A stretch of DNA of 11,606 nucleotides from Candidatus Hermodarchaeota archaeon (lineage in GTDB: Archaea > Asgardarchaeota > Lokiarchaeia > Sigyniarchaeales > SOKP01). Made by a program: the position numbers and the translations under genes. The DNA is taken from positions 1-11,606 of the forward strand of contig JBHLLO010000078.1 of NCBI GenBank assembly GCA_048885535.1, in the 5' to 3' direction. Shown here one piece after another: positions 2,449-10,704 of this stretch (positions are counted from its first letter, which is position 1; every line of letters begins with the position of its first letter). The notes under the pieces are model-generated. The model was not told the DNA's origin and made no database searches. It saw only the letters and a list, made by a program, of their open reading frames with translations.

Positions 2449-4530
2449 ATGGTTAGAAAAATGCGCAAATCTTCTAAAATTTTAACATTATTTACTTTTT
2501 TAATTCTTCCAATATCAGTGGGCATGCTATTTGGATTTAACTTAGCCTTTAATACGGAATCTATAGATCTTATTCCTATTGATATTGGTCCCGAATTAAG
2601 AACAAAAGAACTACCCATAAGAGGGTCATTTTCTCATAAAGAAACAACATCTGGATTAAAAACAGCTCAAACTGACTATTATCAAATTGGAGATCTATTA
2701 GATTGGTTGGTACTTGATGATTATAATGGCGAAACTTTTTTTGATACCTTTGAATTAAGAGCAATCGGAACGGTAGCAGAACTTTGGGTTCAAGTTGATA
2801 TGGCTTATCCAGATGGTCGAGAAATTCCTATAGTAACTGATGAGCAAGCAGATTATATGTTGCAGGAATTCGAGAATGAGATAGGTCCAATTTGTAATAA
2901 TTATTTTGGAGTCCCTGATTTTCATAATGGGAGTGATTCTCAGTTAGTAAAGGATGGAAAGGTTCCAGAAGGTACCTATGAAGACGAGAGTGGAAGGACC
3001 GTTATCTTAGTATCGAATATTAGAGATACAGCATATTATGTTAGAAGTTATCCTTACTATATTGTAGGGTTCTACTGGTCTTATTTTGAAAGGCAATTTG
3101 ACAGGAATATCATTTCAATTGATAGTGCTGATTGGGAAAACCGTGTTGGTGATAATGCTGCTAGACCAAATTTATACGAGGCTACTGTAGCTCATGAATA
3201 CCAGCATCTCATTCACGATGATTATAATCCATTAGATGATAGTTTCATGAATGAAGGATGCTCAATGTATGCAGAACCTTTATGTGGATACCCTATTGAT
3301 TGGGGATCGATTAATAGTTTTCTTGCTACTCCAGATAACTCACTAACAGTATGGGGAGATCAAGGAGATATTAATATATTAGCAGATTATGGGCAAGGGC
3401 TACTATGGTCAGTTTATTTAAGTGATCACTATGGTGGTGCTGACTTTATCAGTTATTTCGTCCAAACGGGAATTCCAGGAATAGAAGGTATTAACAATGC
3501 TCTTGCTTATTTTGGAGCCACCGTTGAATTCGAAGATGTTTTTCAAGATTGGATACTCGCAAATTTACTGCATACAAGTGAAATTGGAAATGGAAAATAC
3601 AACTATGTCTCTATTGATTTAGAATGTGCTGATGCAGACCCTATTAGAGTGTATGATGTTAAGAGACCTTGGCTTCCTCCAACTACTGGAACTGATTTTG
3701 GTCAAACAAAAACTATTTTGCATAAGAATACAGGAGTTTATTTAGTAAGCTCCTATGGTACAGATTATTTCATGTTAAGTGGATTGAGTGAGTCAATGAG
3801 TCAAGAATTTATTTTCGATGGTGATGATGTAGCACATCCTCCTATATGGATAAGAATGGATGAAGATGCGGATGGAGATCTAGAATGGTACTCAACAAGT
3901 GCTGGACCAGAAAAGGATCTTTCAATGACAACTGTCATTGATGTACCTACTGGCACTGCCACTTTATCCTTTGATACATATTACGATATTGAATCACTTT
4001 GGGATTATGGGTTTGTTCAAATATCTGATGACAATGGTGAAACCTGGGTCTCATTAGAAAATGAGTATACAACAATGGATCATGATCCTGATGCTTATCC
4101 TGCAATTGTAGAAAATCTACCTGGTTTAACTGGTTCCTTTGGATGGGACACTATGAGTTTTGACCTTACCGCTTTTGCTGGGCAAACCGTTCTTTTAAGT
4201 TTTAGATATATGACCGACTGGGGAACTGAAAATCCAGGCTGGTGGGTAGATAATATCAAAATCAACGACCAATTAATTGATAACGCTGACGATACAATTG
4301 CTTTTAGCACTCCTCCTCTTCCTGAAACGGATTTTATAGTATCTATTGTTGATGTTACAATTATAAATGAAATTCCACACTATAATGAAGTATTTGAGTT
4401 ATCACTTGATCATATTAATGAATATGGTTCCTTAGATTTAAGTGGTTATATACATGAAGAGGGATATCTAATTGTACTAGTTACTCCTACCGTAGGTCCT
4501 GCAGATTATACATATGAAATAACGAGATAA
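2449..4530 (+). CDS. Secreted/membrane-anchored zinc metalloprotease (HEXXH...NEG catalytic domain, M30/M6-like) with C-terminal immune inhibitor A-like beta-sandwich domain
   Basis: N-terminal basic + hydrophobic signal/anchor. The zinc motif TVAHEYQHLIH is followed by FMNEGCS. C-terminal motifs LSFDTYYDIESLWDYGFVQIS, GETWVSL, FDLTAFAGQTVLLSFRYMTDWG and GWWVDNI are typical of InhA-type domains. The true start may be the ATG at 2461. Confidence 0.85.
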   Translation: MVRKMRKSSKILTLFTFLILPISVGMLFGFNLAFNTESIDLIPIDIGPELRTKELPIRGSFSHKETTSGLKTAQTDYYQIGDLLDWLVLDDYNGETFFDTFELRAIGTVAELWVQVDMAYPDGREIPIVTDEQADYMLQEFENEIGPICNNYFGVPDFHNGSDSQLVKDGKVPEGTYEDESGRTVILVSNIRDTAYYVRSYPYYIVGFYWSYFERQFDRNIISIDSADWENRVGDNAARPNLYEATVAHEYQHLIHDDYNPLDDSFMNEGCSMYAEPLCGYPIDWGSINSFLATPDNSLTVWGDQGDINILADYGQGLLWSVYLSDHYGGADFISYFVQTGIPGIEGINNALAYFGATVEFEDVFQDWILANLLHTSEIGNGKYNYVSIDLECADADPIRVYDVKRPWLPPTTGTDFGQTKTILHKNTGVYLVSSYGTDYFMLSGLSESMSQEFIFDGDDVAHPPIWIRMDEDADGDLEWYSTSAGPEKDLSMTTVIDVPTGTATLSFDTYYDIESLWDYGFVQISDDNGETWVSLENEYTTMDHDPDAYPAIVENLPGLTGSFGWDTMSFDLTAFAGQTVLLSFRYMTDWGTENPGWWVDNIKINDQLIDNADDTIAFSTPPLPETDFIVSIVDVTIINEIPHYNEVFELSLDHINEYGSLDLSGYIHEEGYLIVLVTPTVGPADYTYEITR

Positions 4531-4561: not shown

Positions 4562-4683
4562 GTCTAATATTCTCCCGCAATAATTAATATAAATATGTTA
4601 ACTACTGGTCTAACACAAGTTTAAAAATTAAATGAATAAATAAAACTACAATAGATTGAAAACTAGAAATAATTCAAAAGGTT

Positions 4684-4842
4684 ATGAAGAAAATAGACCT
4701 GATAATAATCGGTTATGTTGCCATAGTTATTTTAGATTTTATTTTCCTTATGATAGTACAGAGATTTGATATATTATTAATTTCAGGATCTCTAGCTCTA
4801 ATCCCTTTAATTATAGTACTAATTCGAAGGAAGAGGGATTGA
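4684..4842 (+). CDS. Small 52-aa two-TM membrane protein (not in the ORF track)
   Basis: Manual translation: MKKIDLIIIGYVAIVILDFIFLMIVQRFDILLISGSLALIPLIIVLIRRKRD*. Two hydrophobic helices with basic N- and C-termini. AAGGT lies just upstream, and the TGA is 1 nt before the next ATG (TGA-T-ATG). Confidence 0.75.
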   Translation: MKKIDLIIIGYVAIVILDFIFLMIVQRFDILLISGSLALIPLIIVLIRRKRD

Positions 4843-4843
4843 T

Positions 4844-5398
4844 ATGGTTGGTATTTCTTATTTTTATATTAATCTTATAATTAATCTTTATATCTTAATA
4901 GCCGTGTATTATTATTGTATTAAAATATATGGAATAAAAGCAACAATAATTACTAATTTGTCTCTTTCATCTTTAGTGTTGATACTTATTTTCACAAGTA
5001 CTTACGGTATAGCGGATTTGGGAACAGACTATCCTTTTTTTATACTAAAGGTGGGAGAATTCGAAATTAATACAGATGTAATTACTATCTTTACAGTGTT
5101 TGTCGTTGTTTTTGAACTCGCACGATATTCTTTAAAAAAATCAAAAGGAACTGATTTATCTATTAAAGATATAATAGTTGTTTCTATTGTAGTAAGTTTA
5201 TATGGAATTCTTTTTCAGCTCCTTATGGATCCAACTGCAGCAGCTATAGGACTTTATTATTATCAAAACCCTCCTGAGATTAACATTTTTGGATATCCAA
5301 TATGGTTTATCACATCTTTTGCAATATATGGATTGTATGCTTTCATCTTTTTATTAATTGAACGTTTTTACTTCCTTAAAAGTAGCAAACACCTTTAG
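4844..5398 (+). CDS. Membrane protein, divergent carotenoid biosynthesis (CruF/DUF422)-like family
   Basis: 184 aa, about 5 TM segments. C-terminal LLMDPTAAAIGLYYY...NIFGYPIWF resembles the DP-x5-G-x-W-x-W...FG-x-P motif of DUF422/CruF proteins, but the Asn/GW signature is missing. Confidence 0.5.
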   Translation: MVGISYFYINLIINLYILIAVYYYCIKIYGIKATIITNLSLSSLVLILIFTSTYGIADLGTDYPFFILKVGEFEINTDVITIFTVFVVVFELARYSLKKSKGTDLSIKDIIVVSIVVSLYGILFQLLMDPTAAAIGLYYYQNPPEINIFGYPIWFITSFAIYGLYAFIFLLIERFYFLKSSKHL

Positions 5399-5440
5399 AA
5401 GAGAAAGACCAAGCAAATTTCCCCTTACAGAAAAAGTAAT

Positions 5441-5638
5441 TTATAAAAAATCCTCTATTAAAACTTGTCTTTGTTTCAATCTCTTAATAGTGAATTTAAT
5501 ATTTTTAATCTTCTCCTCAGCATAGTTCATTGCTATTTTTTTCGCTTCCTCTTCATTTTTAGCGCTAACTTTCAACTTTCGATAGGGAAAAATATGGAAT
5601 CTTATCTCTGCTTCATATTCTGGCAATAAGCTCACCAT
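5441..5638 (-). CDS. Small hypothetical protein (65 aa), DpnD/PcfM-like beta-beta-alpha pattern
   Basis: Fills its own gap with no overlap. EYEAEIRF...LKVSAKNEEEAKKIA matches the V-x-A-x-x-x-E-E-A strand-to-helix motif of small DpnD/PcfM-like proteins. TTAAATA lies about 40 nt upstream on the minus strand. Confidence 0.6.
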   Translation of the reverse strand: MVSLLPEYEAEIRFHIFPYRKLKVSAKNEEEAKKIAMNYAEEKIKNIKFTIKRLKQRQVLIEDFL

Positions 5639-5795
5639 AATTATTATAGTACTATTGAATAAATAATCTAAAAGTATTTAATCATTTTGTCCTTAATTTA
5701 AAATTTTAGACGAATCTAAATTATTTAAATAGTAGAGTATCCTCCTTTTTTTTTATAACTCATTTGTAGTTTTAAAAAAGTTAAAGTGATATATT

Positions 5796-6302
5796 ATGGG
5801 GTCTTCAAAAGGTTTGTTAATATTAACTTTACTAATTGGAATAAGTGGACTAGGTCTCAGTGGATACACTCTACTTTTTGCGTTACCCGCAAATACACAG
5901 CAAGCGCAATCAGGTGTAAGAAATGTTTGGTATACTTCTAATCCCAATTCAGTTAACGTAAATAGCATTGATACAATTATTCCGGATCTTAGTATCATTG
6001 CAACCATTAATTCTGGCGAATCATTATATGTTTTATTCAATTCAGAAGTTTATTTTGAATCTCAGAGTGGAATAGAAATTCTTTTTGTATATATAAGTTT
6101 AAATGGTCGCAAGATTTTAACACCAGTTGCGACATTTGGAGCACAATATGGCCTTAAAGTTTGGGGATCAATAACATTACAATATTCTAATCGTACAATA
6201 TCTCCTGGAGTCTACAATGTTAGTATGATTGCTGTAGTGTCAGTTGCTACCCCTCTAAAGTCCTTATATGATATGACACTATTTGCGTTTACATATCTTT
6301 AA
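5796..6302 (+). CDS. N-terminally anchored extracellular beta-rich hypothetical protein
   Basis: 168 aa. N-terminal TM with IGISGLGLSG, a short polar linker, then alternating-hydrophobic beta strands (GESLYVLFNS, VYISLNG, ITLQY, PGVYNVSM). GTGAT SD-like element upstream and T9 tract downstream. Confidence 0.8.
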   Translation: MGSSKGLLILTLLIGISGLGLSGYTLLFALPANTQQAQSGVRNVWYTSNPNSVNVNSIDTIIPDLSIIATINSGESLYVLFNSEVYFESQSGIEILFVYISLNGRKILTPVATFGAQYGLKVWGSITLQYSNRTISPGVYNVSMIAVVSVATPLKSLYDMTLFAFTYL

Positions 6303-6310
6303 TTAATCTC

Positions 6311-6319
6311 TTTTTTTTT
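6311..6319 (+). terminator. Oligo(T) terminator of 5796..6302
   Basis: T9 run beginning 9 nt after the stop codon. Confidence 0.55.
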
Positions 6320-6321
6320 AA

Positions 6322-6479: not shown

Positions 6480-6830
6480 TTATCTCATATTGTTTATAAT
6501 GGCATTAGCTGTGTCATGAATATTTTTCATTAAGTTGGATATTGTTTGCATCATTACTGCCATTTTATTCTGTGCTTGCTGTAGTAACTGCGCTTGCATT
6601 TTTGAAATTGCTTCATTAACTTCTTCAATTTTCTCTTCTGTGGCACTTTCCAGTTGATTTGCAAGACTAATTAATTTATTACTTGAATCTATTAACCAAT
6701 CAATATATTGGGAAATTTGATCGCTTTCAGCAGGACTAAGATTCTTTCGCATCTTTTTTTTAGCTAAAGACCTTAATTTCTTAGCTGCTTTACGCAGTTT
6801 TGAAATCTGTTTTTTTCGATCATTAGTCAT
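6480..6830 (-). CDS. Alpha-helical hypothetical protein with T3SS needle-subunit (SctF: PrgI/YscF)-like C-terminal helix
   Basis: 116 aa with a GTGAT SD-like element upstream. Very basic N-terminal helix, then amphipathic helices. C-terminus is LQQAQNKMAVMMQTISNLMKNIHDTANAIINNMR. No signal peptide or TM. Confidence 0.75.
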   Translation of the reverse strand: MTNDRKKQISKLRKAAKKLRSLAKKKMRKNLSPAESDQISQYIDWLIDSSNKLISLANQLESATEEKIEEVNEAISKMQAQLLQQAQNKMAVMMQTISNLMKNIHDTANAIINNMR

Positions 6831-7443: not shown

Positions 7444-10400
7444 TTAAATATTCTCTTTTTTCCTTATGCTGATGATTAGAATAGCAAGTGTGATCAATGC
7501 TGATATTATAATGAATTCTATCATCCAAGGAATAGATGGTGGTAATAAAGTTTCAGCATCGTAGGAATATGGTATATCTATTTGATTATTATCTTCTTTA
7601 AGCTCTATAATTTCATCTGATGGATCAACTAAGGCACTAATAACATAATCGGTTCCATCAATAAACCAAGAGAAGAAATCTTCAAGATCTAAAACAATCA
7701 CAGTTGTCTGATTTACATCCAAAGCAATCGGAGTTATAGTTCCATTGTATAGAGTAAGTGAGAGTGAATCAATCCATATGAATAGCGTGATATTAGATGC
7801 AATCTCAGTCCCATTATTAAGTATTGTAATTGTTAATATATCATTAATAAGAGTATATGTTTGAATAAGTAAATCGGGAAAAGTACCTGATGGGAGATAA
7901 TAGTATTGCAATATCAACGAATTATTGTTTTCATTAAGCTCTAAAATTGTATCGCGTGGATCAATCCTTATCGTGATATTATAGGTTTCTCCTACTGTAA
8001 ACAGATGTGAATAATCAGATAAGTTCACGTATATTCCAAATATAGAGCTGATGTTGATATCAACTGGAGATAGAGTATTATTAAATAATATAAGTGAAAG
8101 TAGTTCAATTTCGACGACTATTTCAACCGCGCTTGCATTTTCATTTCCTATATTAGTAATATTAATCCAAAGTTCTCCAGATGTTAAAATATAATTATCT
8201 ACTACTAAATCAGGCAAGAATAGATTTGGTCTATAATGAAATTCCAGATCAACCTGGTTATTTAATTCATTTTGCTCGACAATTTGATTTTGTGGATCGA
8301 TGTTGACGGTAATATTGTAAATTTCTCCCCATGTAAAATTCTCATGAAAAGATATAAGGTCAATTACAATCACTTCAGTCTCATTGGTTTGGAGATCGAA
8401 GGGAGTTAGGGAATTGTTATAAAGAATTATAGGGATCGATTCGATTCCAACTAGAATTTCTACTCCAGTAGTATTTTCATCTCCAGAATTTTTGATTGTA
8501 ATTGTTAAGGATGAATTTGTTATATCATAATCGAATAAGAGAAGCTCAGCTAAAAGTGGAGGATTTCCTACAAAGGGATATTCCATTAGTGGTCTATCAT
8601 CAATTCCATTAGGAGGAATGAAATAAGGTGTATCACCGATTTTATCATTGTTTGTATCATTTCCTATATAATCATCCCAATAATTTCCTATATCATTTTT
8701 AGTCCAATGTGTATCTGTGCCTGAATCCTGACCCTGAACATTATTTTGGATAAAAGCATTATGCGAAAATGTATTGTTTATAGCTGTGGATTGTGTTATG
8801 TAGACACCATTTCCACTACAAGATTGGATGATATTATTTTTAAATAGATTAAAACTTGAACTAGAGGCTAATTGAATGCCTGAACCAAAAGCACTGGTAA
8901 TATTATTTCCTTTGAAGATATTAGAATCACATCCCATTTGGAGTAAGAATCCAAATTGAACACTCCAAATCTCATTATTTAAGATACGATTTTGATCAGC
9001 ATCAGATAGTAGTTCAATGCCACGACTCGTTCCGCTAAAACGGTTTTTAGTACAAGTATTGTTGTCGCTCATACGGATATGAAGTCCTCCCAACCCATTG
9101 GAAAGACCTACATTATCATGAATAGTGTTGTTCCTACTATAAGATCCTATCCATATACCATAGTTGCCATTTGAATTTACAGTATTATGTGATACATTGT
9201 TGAAATTTGTGTTTTCAAGATCTATCCCTGCAATATTTTGACTGAAGGTATTGAATACCACTTGATTTTCTTGACCTCCATCTTGGTAATAGCCATTGGT
9301 GCATTCTGTAACTGTATTTAATAGGACATTCGAATAGCTTGTAAATAACAGTGAGATTCCTACCGTTACATTATAAAAAGTAAATGAGATAATATCACAA
9401 TTAGTGCAATTAACAAGTATAATCTGCCCTGCATTAACGAAATTCGCAGCGTTTAATCCATCTTGATTAAGATAATAATAGATAGGTTTCCCATTTGCCC
9501 TATTGTTAGCATATATAAAATTCGAAACTCTTTGAACTGTTGAGCCACTGACATATATACCACATCCAAACATCTTATTGTTTGAAATATTGTTTTCTGA
9601 TGAACCAGTAAGAATAATTCCTCCGTGAGATACATCAACAATCGTATTATTGATTATTTTGTTGTTATTACTGTAATAACTTATATCAATACCGTAGTAT
9701 CCATTGTCTATCAATTCATTATCAATAATACTATTATTCATAGAATCATCCAAACTAATACCCCTACTACCTCCATGAAGAAATTTATTATTTATTACTC
9801 GATTTTGAGTGCAATCAGATCTAATACGAATACCATAGGAGTTAAATTGCCCAAAATTGTCGTCAATCAAATTATTACTGCAAAAATCGTAGATATCAAC
9901 CCCATATAAACTTCCCGTGACGTTATTATCATATATAGTATTATTATTGCAATTATTCCTAAGATAAACACTTGCTATATCAACATCGATTAAATCATTA
10001 TTGGTTATAGTGTTATTATCGCATAAGTCTAATAGATATATTCCATCATCCATTCTTGAGCCTAGTTGATTTGCTGTGTTGTTAATAATAATATTGAAAT
10101 CGCAATCGTCTTGCAGAAAAATTCCTCGTGGAGTATAAATTGGACTGGCACTACTACTGGTACATCGACTCACATCATTCTCAACTAATGTAAAATTATC
10201 GCAATTATCGTACATATAAATCCCAAAATAATTGGAAGTAAAGTTACAATCTATGATCTTTCCATTAGTTGAATTAGTAATATACAGACCCTTCTCATCT
10301 TCGTCAATTGCACCATGAGCTTCCACATTAATGAGTTGAAAGTATATTTTGCGAGAATTCTGTATAGATAATCCATATTCAGCGCTTCCTATAGATAAAG

Positions 10401-10704
10401 TCAAATTCTCAATAATATATGGGCTATGAAATGTTCCTAATCCGCGACACCATGGCTGTTCTACTGCCCAGTTCCAATTTCCATAATGGCTCCCATTAGT
10501 GAGAGCCTGATTATCAATAGTTAATGAAGTATTCGTCCATGATGCTGAACTTTTCATTTTTAAAAATATTTCTTTTTGGTAATCGCGTGCTTGATTTTGA
10601 ATAACTGAATTAGAAAGTATTGGAAATAGAAGAGAGATTAATAGACAACATATGATAAAAAATGTTTTAACTTCTTGAAATCTTATATTTTTGAACTTAA
10701 GCAT
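7444..10704 (-). CDS. Cell-surface protein: right-handed parallel beta-helix (NosD-like) + 3 CARDB domains + C-terminal TM anchor
   Basis: Signal/TM at the N-terminus, then WNWAVEQPWCRGLGTFHSPYIIENLT and many GIxL-x-x-x-x-xNxIxxN coils. NosD cap GNYWDDYIGNDTNNDKIGDTPY, three CARDB repeats, and tail PPSIPWMIEFIIISALITLAILIISIRKKENI. Confidence 0.92.
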   Translation of the reverse strand: MLKFKNIRFQEVKTFFIICCLLISLLFPILSNSVIQNQARDYQKEIFLKMKSSASWTNTSLTIDNQALTNGSHYGNWNWAVEQPWCRGLGTFHSPYIIENLTLSIGSAEYGLSIQNSRKIYFQLINVEAHGAIDEDEKGLYITNSTNGKIIDCNFTSNYFGIYMYDNCDNFTLVENDVSRCTSSSASPIYTPRGIFLQDDCDFNIIINNTANQLGSRMDDGIYLLDLCDNNTITNNDLIDVDIASVYLRNNCNNNTIYDNNVTGSLYGVDIYDFCSNNLIDDNFGQFNSYGIRIRSDCTQNRVINNKFLHGGSRGISLDDSMNNSIIDNELIDNGYYGIDISYYSNNNKIINNTIVDVSHGGIILTGSSENNISNNKMFGCGIYVSGSTVQRVSNFIYANNRANGKPIYYYLNQDGLNAANFVNAGQIILVNCTNCDIISFTFYNVTVGISLLFTSYSNVLLNTVTECTNGYYQDGGQENQVVFNTFSQNIAGIDLENTNFNNVSHNTVNSNGNYGIWIGSYSRNNTIHDNVGLSNGLGGLHIRMSDNNTCTKNRFSGTSRGIELLSDADQNRILNNEIWSVQFGFLLQMGCDSNIFKGNNITSAFGSGIQLASSSSFNLFKNNIIQSCSGNGVYITQSTAINNTFSHNAFIQNNVQGQDSGTDTHWTKNDIGNYWDDYIGNDTNNDKIGDTPYFIPPNGIDDRPLMEYPFVGNPPLLAELLLFDYDITNSSLTITIKNSGDENTTGVEILVGIESIPIILYNNSLTPFDLQTNETEVIVIDLISFHENFTWGEIYNITVNIDPQNQIVEQNELNNQVDLEFHYRPNLFLPDLVVDNYILTSGELWINITNIGNENASAVEIVVEIELLSLILFNNTLSPVDINISSIFGIYVNLSDYSHLFTVGETYNITIRIDPRDTILELNENNNSLILQYYYLPSGTFPDLLIQTYTLINDILTITILNNGTEIASNITLFIWIDSLSLTLYNGTITPIALDVNQTTVIVLDLEDFFSWFIDGTDYVISALVDPSDEIIELKEDNNQIDIPYSYDAETLLPPSIPWMIEFIIISALITLAILIISIRKKENI
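7567..8555 (-). repeat. Three tandem CARDB (Ig-like) domain repeats within the surface protein
   Basis: Each has (P/A)(D/E)L...IxNxG...DPxxxIxExxExNN: about 8235-8555 (DPQNQIVEQNELNN), about 7898-8215 (DPRDTILELNENNN), about 7567-7878 (DPSDEIIELKEDNN). Boundaries approximate. Confidence 0.85.

Follow-up and report, generated by a model that had tools for sequence, protein, structure and literature searches.

The window analysed here consists of the initial 11,606 bases of contig JBHLLO010000078.1 (14,201 bases in all) of Candidatus Hermodarchaeota archaeon, whose assembled genome measures 3.09 Mb and is 91.6% complete. Its minus strand carries an open reading frame (ORF) at 6480..6830 that begins with ATG, ends in a stop codon and encodes an all-helical protein of 116 residues with a pI of 9.9; the genome holds a single copy of this gene. 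The initial annotation saw in it a stand-alone protein resembling SctF, the needle subunit in type III secretion systems (T3SS), in an apparent Asgard archaeon, and the ORF is present exactly, down to the last 34 residues that had been quoted. Judged by sequence comparison, the protein is best described as belonging to a new T3SS-independent family with a needle-tail-like helix, and not as a needle protein.

The assignment of the host to the Asgard archaea is supported by a Snf7 (ESCRT-III) gene (65.9 bits), by four actin-family genes (best 442 bits; actin matches occur in 0 of 14 control genomes) and by a same-genus genome, G006, which contains a stretch with printed translations identical to a Promethearchaeota record. 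The GC content of the gene (0.311) matches that of the genome (0.302), and the contig as a whole has 0.312, against 0.303 +/- 0.011 across the genome. Its tetranucleotide correlation of 0.979 lies slightly under the 5th percentile (0.988) of contigs of 8 kb or more, which, the contig being short, is a weak reason for doubting it. T3SS genes were not found in the window, as had been noted, and a search of the 91.6%-complete host genome for FHIPEP, FliP and Bac_export_2 (SctV/FlhA, SctR/FliP and SctU/FlhB) was likewise negative.

The window protein contains a single proline, P33, and thus no P-x-x-P turn. Its first 31 residues hold 14 lysines or arginines and one acidic residue (pI 12.0), in keeping with the strongly basic N-terminal helix of the initial annotation, and inspection of the sequence confirmed the absence of a hydrophobic N-terminal segment, that is, of a signal peptide. 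AlphaFold2 (AF2) models the protein as four helices (pLDDT 86.2, pTM 0.78; Table 1) with a kink at S98/N99, and pLDDT falls to 69 over residues 91-100. When residues 52-116 are modelled alone, the prediction is a single continuous helix (pLDDT 92.9), compatible with a helix able to straighten.

Table 1. Predicted helices and C-terminal module of the window protein (positions are those of the window)
Feature	Residues	Positions	Strand	Basis
Helix 1, strongly basic	2-24	6759..6827	-	AF2 model; aligns to family RIxxLRxxxxxLxxLA helix
Helix 2, with the family's conserved Y..WL motif (W45, L46)	33-62	6645..6734	-	AF2 model and family alignment
Helix 3, acidic start, then Q-rich first half of the SctF-like module	65-96	6543..6638	-	AF2 model
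Helix 4, after the S98/N99 kink	99-114	6489..6536	-	AF2 model
SctF-like C-terminal module	76-116	6483..6605	-	S-N-x-x-K-x-x-H-D-x-x-x-A-I-I-x-N-x-R at free C-terminus; hhalign

The ORF is not the orphan that "stand-alone" would imply. At E<=1e-3, an exhaustive phmmer search returned 33 cluster representatives, among them the query and P0012, a repetitive 571-residue protein that was later dropped, and nearly all of them align to their own last residue. One relative, P0002, is intact and 76% identical, and was the sole close match of a word-indexed search. A profile search then recovered 487 proteins at E<=1e-3 among 8,000 candidates scored. All of these are named "hypothetical protein" or carry stray automatic labels; a precomputed Pfam domain is present in just one of the 120 profile matches listed, and PHROGs and PADLOC scans gave weak, inconsistent helical matches alone. 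To judge from these searches, the window ORF is a genuine gene of a large unannotated family with a patchy distribution across bacteria and Asgard lineages. Scanning one genome per species yielded 45 genomic loci in bacteria and Asgard metagenome-assembled genomes. On the bacterial side the family is carried by Syntrophaceae, Myxococcota/Polyangiales, Acidobacteriota, Burkholderiales with other Pseudomonadota, Planctomycetota, Chloroflexia and Bdellovibrionales; on the archaeal side, by genomes titled Thorarchaeota, Promethearchaeota or "archaeon".

Alignment A1 comprises 32 representatives, with P0012 and P0011 (655 residues) excluded. It begins with an RIxxLR...LA helix, followed by a P-x-P loop, a Y..WL helix, a variable linker and a conserved C-terminal stretch ending ...SNIMKxKHDTAKNxINNxR. 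Near-invariant columns correspond to L83, Q84, S98, N99, M101, K102, D106, A108, I112, N114 and R116 of the window protein. Among 193 classified tails, 169 are of a majority subtype, "ENRQF...SNIMK"; the window protein falls in a Q-rich minority subtype, "...MQT.SN.MK..HDT", to which a form ending "...IRKIG" is related. The window protein's subtype is linked to the majority one by profile-profile alignment (hhalign 98.6%, E 5e-16). Within the window's own class, three genomes (G008, G588 and G586; L064, L066 and L067) encode proteins of ~150 residues that end in ...HDT..A.IRKIG, and a fourth (G501; L065) encodes a 101-residue protein matching the SctF family of Pfam, PF09392, over positions 4-70 of 71 with 20.2 bits. 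The neighbours at all four loci are unrelated metabolic genes.

The conserved, portable unit is the final ~41-45 residues, which always stand at the extreme C-terminus; in long relatives the profile match is confined to positions ~96-140 (the last ~45). Proteins bearing this module range from 88 to 1,836 residues, and one database entry of 45 residues is scarcely more than the module itself. It ends a 655-residue Cys-rich secreted protein, three tandem paralogues of ~500 residues in the deltaproteobacterial genome G472, and, on a Planctomycetota chromosome (L035:2598-8108), a 1,836-residue RHS-repeat protein (PF05593, E 2.3e-61) in which the module makes up the final 45 residues, directly after the RHS core. 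Most bacterial four-helix forms have a signal-peptide-like (Sec-type) N-terminus, and none of the archaeal forms does. Since most bacterial homologues appear to be Sec-signalled, a conserved role across the family as a cytoplasmic filament, which the initial annotation considered possible for the window protein, is argued against.

One module behind N-terminal regions as diverse as those of the RHS protein and the Cys-rich secreted protein, together with the bacterial signal peptides, the patchy cross-domain distribution and the variable N-termini of the G472 paralogues, could also point to a delivered effector or cargo. The tail would then be a small "warhead" on varied export routes (Sec, the RHS shell and possibly the T3SS in Myxococcota), much as in polymorphic toxins, and the archaeal copies would have been captured. 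RHS proteins usually carry a toxin domain right after the core, and the module does sit at the RHS-core tip in L035; typical toxin domains are much longer than the module. We nevertheless consider a delivered effector decidedly unlikely: the RHS fusion occurs at just one of the 45 loci; the module, which is polar, shows no catalytic motif; it belongs to no PADLOC or PHROGs family; the archaeal copies have no export signal; and no immunity-like neighbour recurs, the sole downstream neighbour scanned at the RHS locus being a DUF2344 protein and not a recognisable immunity gene.

Our own description, a family outside the T3SS with a needle-tail-like helix, draws on the comparison with SctF. In place of the PrgI string cited in the initial annotation, we used needle genes taken from four named plasmid or E. 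coli records: YscF, AscF, MxiH, EprI and EscF. In ungapped, end-anchored comparison of the last 20 residues, the window protein is identical to MxiH at 10 positions, EprI at 9, EscF at 6, YscF at 3 and AscF at 2; L050 gave 4/20. The pattern common to the window protein and MxiH is.SN..K.I.D...AII.N.R, so that the claim of a needle-like end on the same terminal Arg holds for a fetched needle sequence. The YscF segment cited alongside it also occurs in the YscF sequence used here, and has L, Q, N, K, V and S in common with the window protein. When the MxiH end was compared with the 20 C-terminal residues of each of the 7,349 ORFs of at least 60 residues in the same genome, the window ORF alone reached 8 or more identities; in a sliding comparison over 1,138,000 segments, 8 did so, the best with 10.

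At the level of single profiles, PF09392 is the commonest weak Pfam match in the family, hitting 6 of 32 members (the next family hits 4) with a best E of 4.8e-4, and further members score 20.2-23.2 bits on it. MxiI, a true paralogue of SctF, itself reaches just 20.1 bits; real relatives can therefore fall under the cut-off. Q84 and S98, both conserved in the family, align to the Q and S columns that are invariant in SctF. A language-model search placed SctF clusters at 0.90 and 0.87, which serves as a lead only.

The signal at the family level is stronger than that of single sequences, which is weak. Tails of the whole family align to SctF by hhalign with 44.5% probability (P 2.3e-4) over 36 columns, with both C-termini anchored; 0 of 400 column shuffles reach the real score (maxima 21.6 and 17.4 against 25.3), and reversed controls score ~9. 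A first run with the window subtype (94%) was set aside because it contained sequences found with PF09392 itself. An unbiased set of 18 sequences, found via the window protein or the family profile alone, gave 87.6% (P 3.5e-6) over 41 columns, again anchored at both C-termini. With the window protein removed, the set gave 86.5%; against the six seed SctFs it gave 89.4%. The controls were reversed SctF, at 0.1%, and 300 shuffles, none of which reached the score (maximum 17.5 against 33.6). A large-database search to deepen the SctF profile yielded mostly near-identical sequences from E. coli, Shigella and Aeromonas, of which 10 were left after an 80% identity filter; an even draw of 400 genomes of one proteobacterial class for SctF seeds produced one weak match. 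In spike-in searches with the host genome's 7,349 ORFs as decoys, the family hidden Markov model (HMM) placed 8 of the 10 SctFs among the 20 best-ranked of 7,360 sequences, single E-values being 0.6-7. Conversely, the window ORF was the best native match of the SctF HMM in that genome (E 2.7e-5), and family spikes made up 29 of the top 40 hits. The SctF-like C-terminal helix proposed at the outset is thus beyond chance at the profile level, and the last ~41 residues are probably related by descent to SctF's C-terminal helix, or else closely mimic it.

Several results weigh against this. The window protein scores 16.5 bits on PF09392 (17.9 in a six-frame search) against a cut-off of 29.4, and 13.3 bits on TIGR02105 against 41.7, so that a match to the SctF profiles is not obtained at either curated cut-off. 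The PF09392 cut-off is reached by no match in the 161 genomes of the window's class, and in three of them the same profile gives 15.6-20.3-bit matches to non-family sequences; a match of this size from a single sequence is therefore at the level of noise. On its own, the majority subtype aligns to SctF with a hhalign probability of just 13.9%. When run (with a prefilter) on the four T3SS-bearing records, the family profile found no needle gene and one unrelated match (E 0.33). Against the PDB, neither the profile nor phmmer found an SctF chain at E<10, the lone T3SS-labelled row being a 43-residue chain at E 2.1. With the full-length model, Foldseek returned generic four-helix bundles alone (E>=0.72), and VIA gave generic bundles with a top Z of 11.9, below the ~13 quoted for helical noise; the predicted fold is thus a generic four-helix bundle, not that of a needle subunit. 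No gene neighbourhood was found to be conserved across lineages at the 45 loci and four further archaeal loci, and two of the six other copies in the class are disrupted (G006 by a TGA and a frameshift, G516 by a TAA). Finally, the match concerns one Q/N/M-rich helix of ~41 residues, and profile-profile probabilities for such segments can be inflated.

Two of the non-family matches, L085 (G565; 19.5 bits) and L086 (G013; 15.6 bits), are C-terminal ends of ~400-residue proteins with no match to the family profile; they make a useful false-positive benchmark for PF09392 in AT-rich archaeal genomes.

Chance or convergence would account for many of these points. The protein would then be an ordinary four-helix-bundle or coiled-coil protein whose Gln/Asn/Met-rich last helix only looks like an SctF tail, as the sub-threshold scores, the equal scores of unrelated proteins from sister genomes, the generic structure matches, the low majority-subtype probability and the similar E-values of many coiled-coil families on the window protein would have it. 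Such an origin would leave unexplained an order-specific profile-profile signal that shuffling and reversal abolish, reciprocal enrichment among 7,349 natural decoys, a motif at the exact C-terminus in both families, and the recurrence of PF09392 as top weak match across divergent members. We hold it to be rather unlikely.

The account we lean towards, with slightly more confidence than doubt, is that of a T3SS-independent family of small helical proteins with a needle-tail-like C-terminal helix, the tail being an association module that the N-terminal hairpin masks. The protein would be cytoplasmic in this archaeon. In the monomer, the N-terminal hairpin, here unusually basic, would hold the tail in a closed four-helix bundle; release of the tail and straightening of the long C-terminal helix may then lead to coiled-coil oligomerisation or docking, the tail helix acting as a self- or partner-association (polymerisation) module. 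By analogy, such masking would resemble that of needle subunits kept monomeric by chaperones and of tip proteins by their own N-terminal hairpin. A four-copy oligomer prediction with alignment A1 scored 0.30 (mark 0.42), which speaks neither for nor against an oligomer. If true, an SctF-like tail helix outside the T3SS would help to trace the source, or the later fate, of the helix by which the needle polymerises, and Asgard biology would gain a helical protein, taken over from bacteria, as a candidate for self-assembly; should the resemblance be convergent, the finding reduces to an unannotated family of four-helix proteins.

SctF is exported by the T3SS itself, and its C-terminal helix packs the subunits into the needle and lines the lumen. 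Like the window protein it is small and helical, with a ~41-residue helix at the free C-terminus reading S-N-x-x-K...D...A-I-I-x-N-x-R and ending on Arg. Unlike it, SctF is a hairpin of ~70-90 residues with a P-x-x-P turn, whereas the window protein has 116 residues and four helices, including the extra, very basic N-terminal hairpin; the fetched SctFs show an NP.NP turn where related subtypes of the family have D-D-A/S-Q. Needle-chaperone genes do not lie nearby, and the bacterial homologues carry Sec signal peptides. As an SctF, the window protein was accordingly rejected: it scores under both cut-offs, has four helices and no P-x-x-P turn, and its genome has no SctV, SctR or SctU.

Other named systems resemble the family in single respects. 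The score of MxiI, an SctI (PF17001), on PF09392 lies within the family's range of 16.5-27.1 bits, but the family HMM ranks MxiI 192nd of 7,360, and SctI is encoded and exported by the T3SS. In the tip proteins IpaD, SipD and BipD, an N-terminal helical hairpin packs on the coiled-coil helix before this docks onto the needle, which offers an analogy for the closed bundle; these proteins are ~300 residues long, and the searches with the window protein gave no match to them in sequence or fold, the structural ones returning generic bundles. ESCRT-III/Snf7 proteins (PF03357) are likewise small, helical and polymer-forming, with a basic N-terminal helix. Snf7 is not among the best 25 of the 48 families matching the window protein at E<=10, and its profile matches 1 of 32 family members weakly (E 4.8e-4); closed CdvB appears at a VIA Z of 8.8, a value within helical noise. 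At a single locus (L007:850-3340, matching G006:C104, Promethearchaeota), a disrupted family copy adjoins Snf7/ESCRT-III and Vps4 genes.

The family occurs largely without a T3SS. SctV above the curated cut-off of TIGR01399 was found in 11 of 40 carrier genomes, which are Myxococcota-type, Bdellovibrionales or similar and mostly have short-module forms. In 15 others there are sub-threshold FlhA-like matches alone, and 14, namely all 8 archaeal and 6 bacterial ones, have no SctV/FlhA at all, which agrees with the T3SS-independent family envisaged in the initial annotation. In one complete Polyangiales chromosome, the family gene lies ~2 Mb from SctV and therefore outside the SctV cluster. Among the papers listed by literature searches on SctF or type III secretion in Asgard archaea, none describes such a family, to judge by title and opening of the abstract.

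Five of the SctV-positive Myxococcota, Bdellovibrionales and deltaproteobacterial genomes (G062, G472, G495, G497 and G499) have no canonical SctF above the Pfam cut-off. They encode proteins of 258-564 residues (L069-L076) that end in a needle-tail-like module and score up to 27.1 bits on PF09392, and 7 of their 8 best PF09392 matches are ORFs also matched by the family-tail profile, with the module at their C-termini. In Abby and Rocha (PMC3459982), the Myxococcales T3SS, the earliest-branching one, is reported without SctF, and SctF is linked to flagellar axial proteins. A bolder reading would make the tail an ancient, portable polymerisation or docking module, independent of the T3SS, Sec-exported in many bacteria, fused to RHS and other carriers, and a cytoplasmic polymer in Asgard archaea, with SctF recruited from this family, or with the family supplying to the secretin-less T3SS of Myxococcota the needle-like component that is "missing" there; we think this unlikely.

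In one Myxococcota locus (L043:7638-12608; similar in L030, L034 and L046), the family gene is followed in the run by a 138-residue tetratricopeptide repeat (TPR) protein, a 164-residue unknown protein, a sigma-70 factor and a 167-residue protein with a weak match to the YscI inner-rod family (PF17001, E 5.4e-4). Small TPR proteins are typical T3SS chaperones. At the Burkholderiales loci, the family gene comes after an ABC transporter.

The family is sporadic in the window's class, being present in 7 of 161 genomes, and synteny with congeners spans window positions ~4670-6320 and ends in a breakpoint just short of the gene. A tree of four-helix forms only, built from 23 locus or window proteins and 18 database proteins, is weakly supported; it sets a Thorarchaeota-type clade apart from the long-branch pair formed by the window protein and P0002 and requires the "Asgard" label to change twice or more. 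Because the carriers are mostly bacterial, the class genomes with a copy are so few, synteny breaks at the gene and archaeal copies fall in at least two places of the tree, a bacterial origin followed by transfer into Asgard lineages is plausible. The gene is probably an accessory one in this archaeon, acquired horizontally; exchange of such a gene between bacteria of the sediment and Asgard archaea would agree with the results. The suggestion of a captured bacterial gene retained intact is thus plausible as to the capture and holds for the intactness of the window copy; two of the six other class copies have not stayed intact.

Those stops and the frameshift, the small number of class genomes with a copy, the breakpoint and the long branch would also suit a decaying remnant, a functionless leftover of horizontal transfer drifting to loss in this lineage. 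Yet the window copy is intact and keeps all near-invariant family residues, its 76%-identical homologue is intact too, and its GC content matches that of the genome, which makes decay very unlikely here. An intact member of a T3SS-independent helical family remains our description of the gene.

Two large genes of the window probably encode surface or secreted proteins: an InhA-like protein of 693 residues with a MAM domain (2449-4530, +) and a beta-helix/NosD protein of 1,086 residues with CARDB domains and a C-terminal hydrophobic segment (7444-10704, -). An Rfam scan of the window gave no match. Between the first of these genes and the family gene lies a stretch of ~230 bp (5430-5668; ORF 5441..5638, -, 65 residues) that has no Pfam or Rfam match and is missing at the syntenic spot of G025. 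Stretches 74-83% identical to it occur in many genomes of the same genus, in some of them two per genome; it may represent a small element, mobile or repeated, or else a conserved gene of small size.

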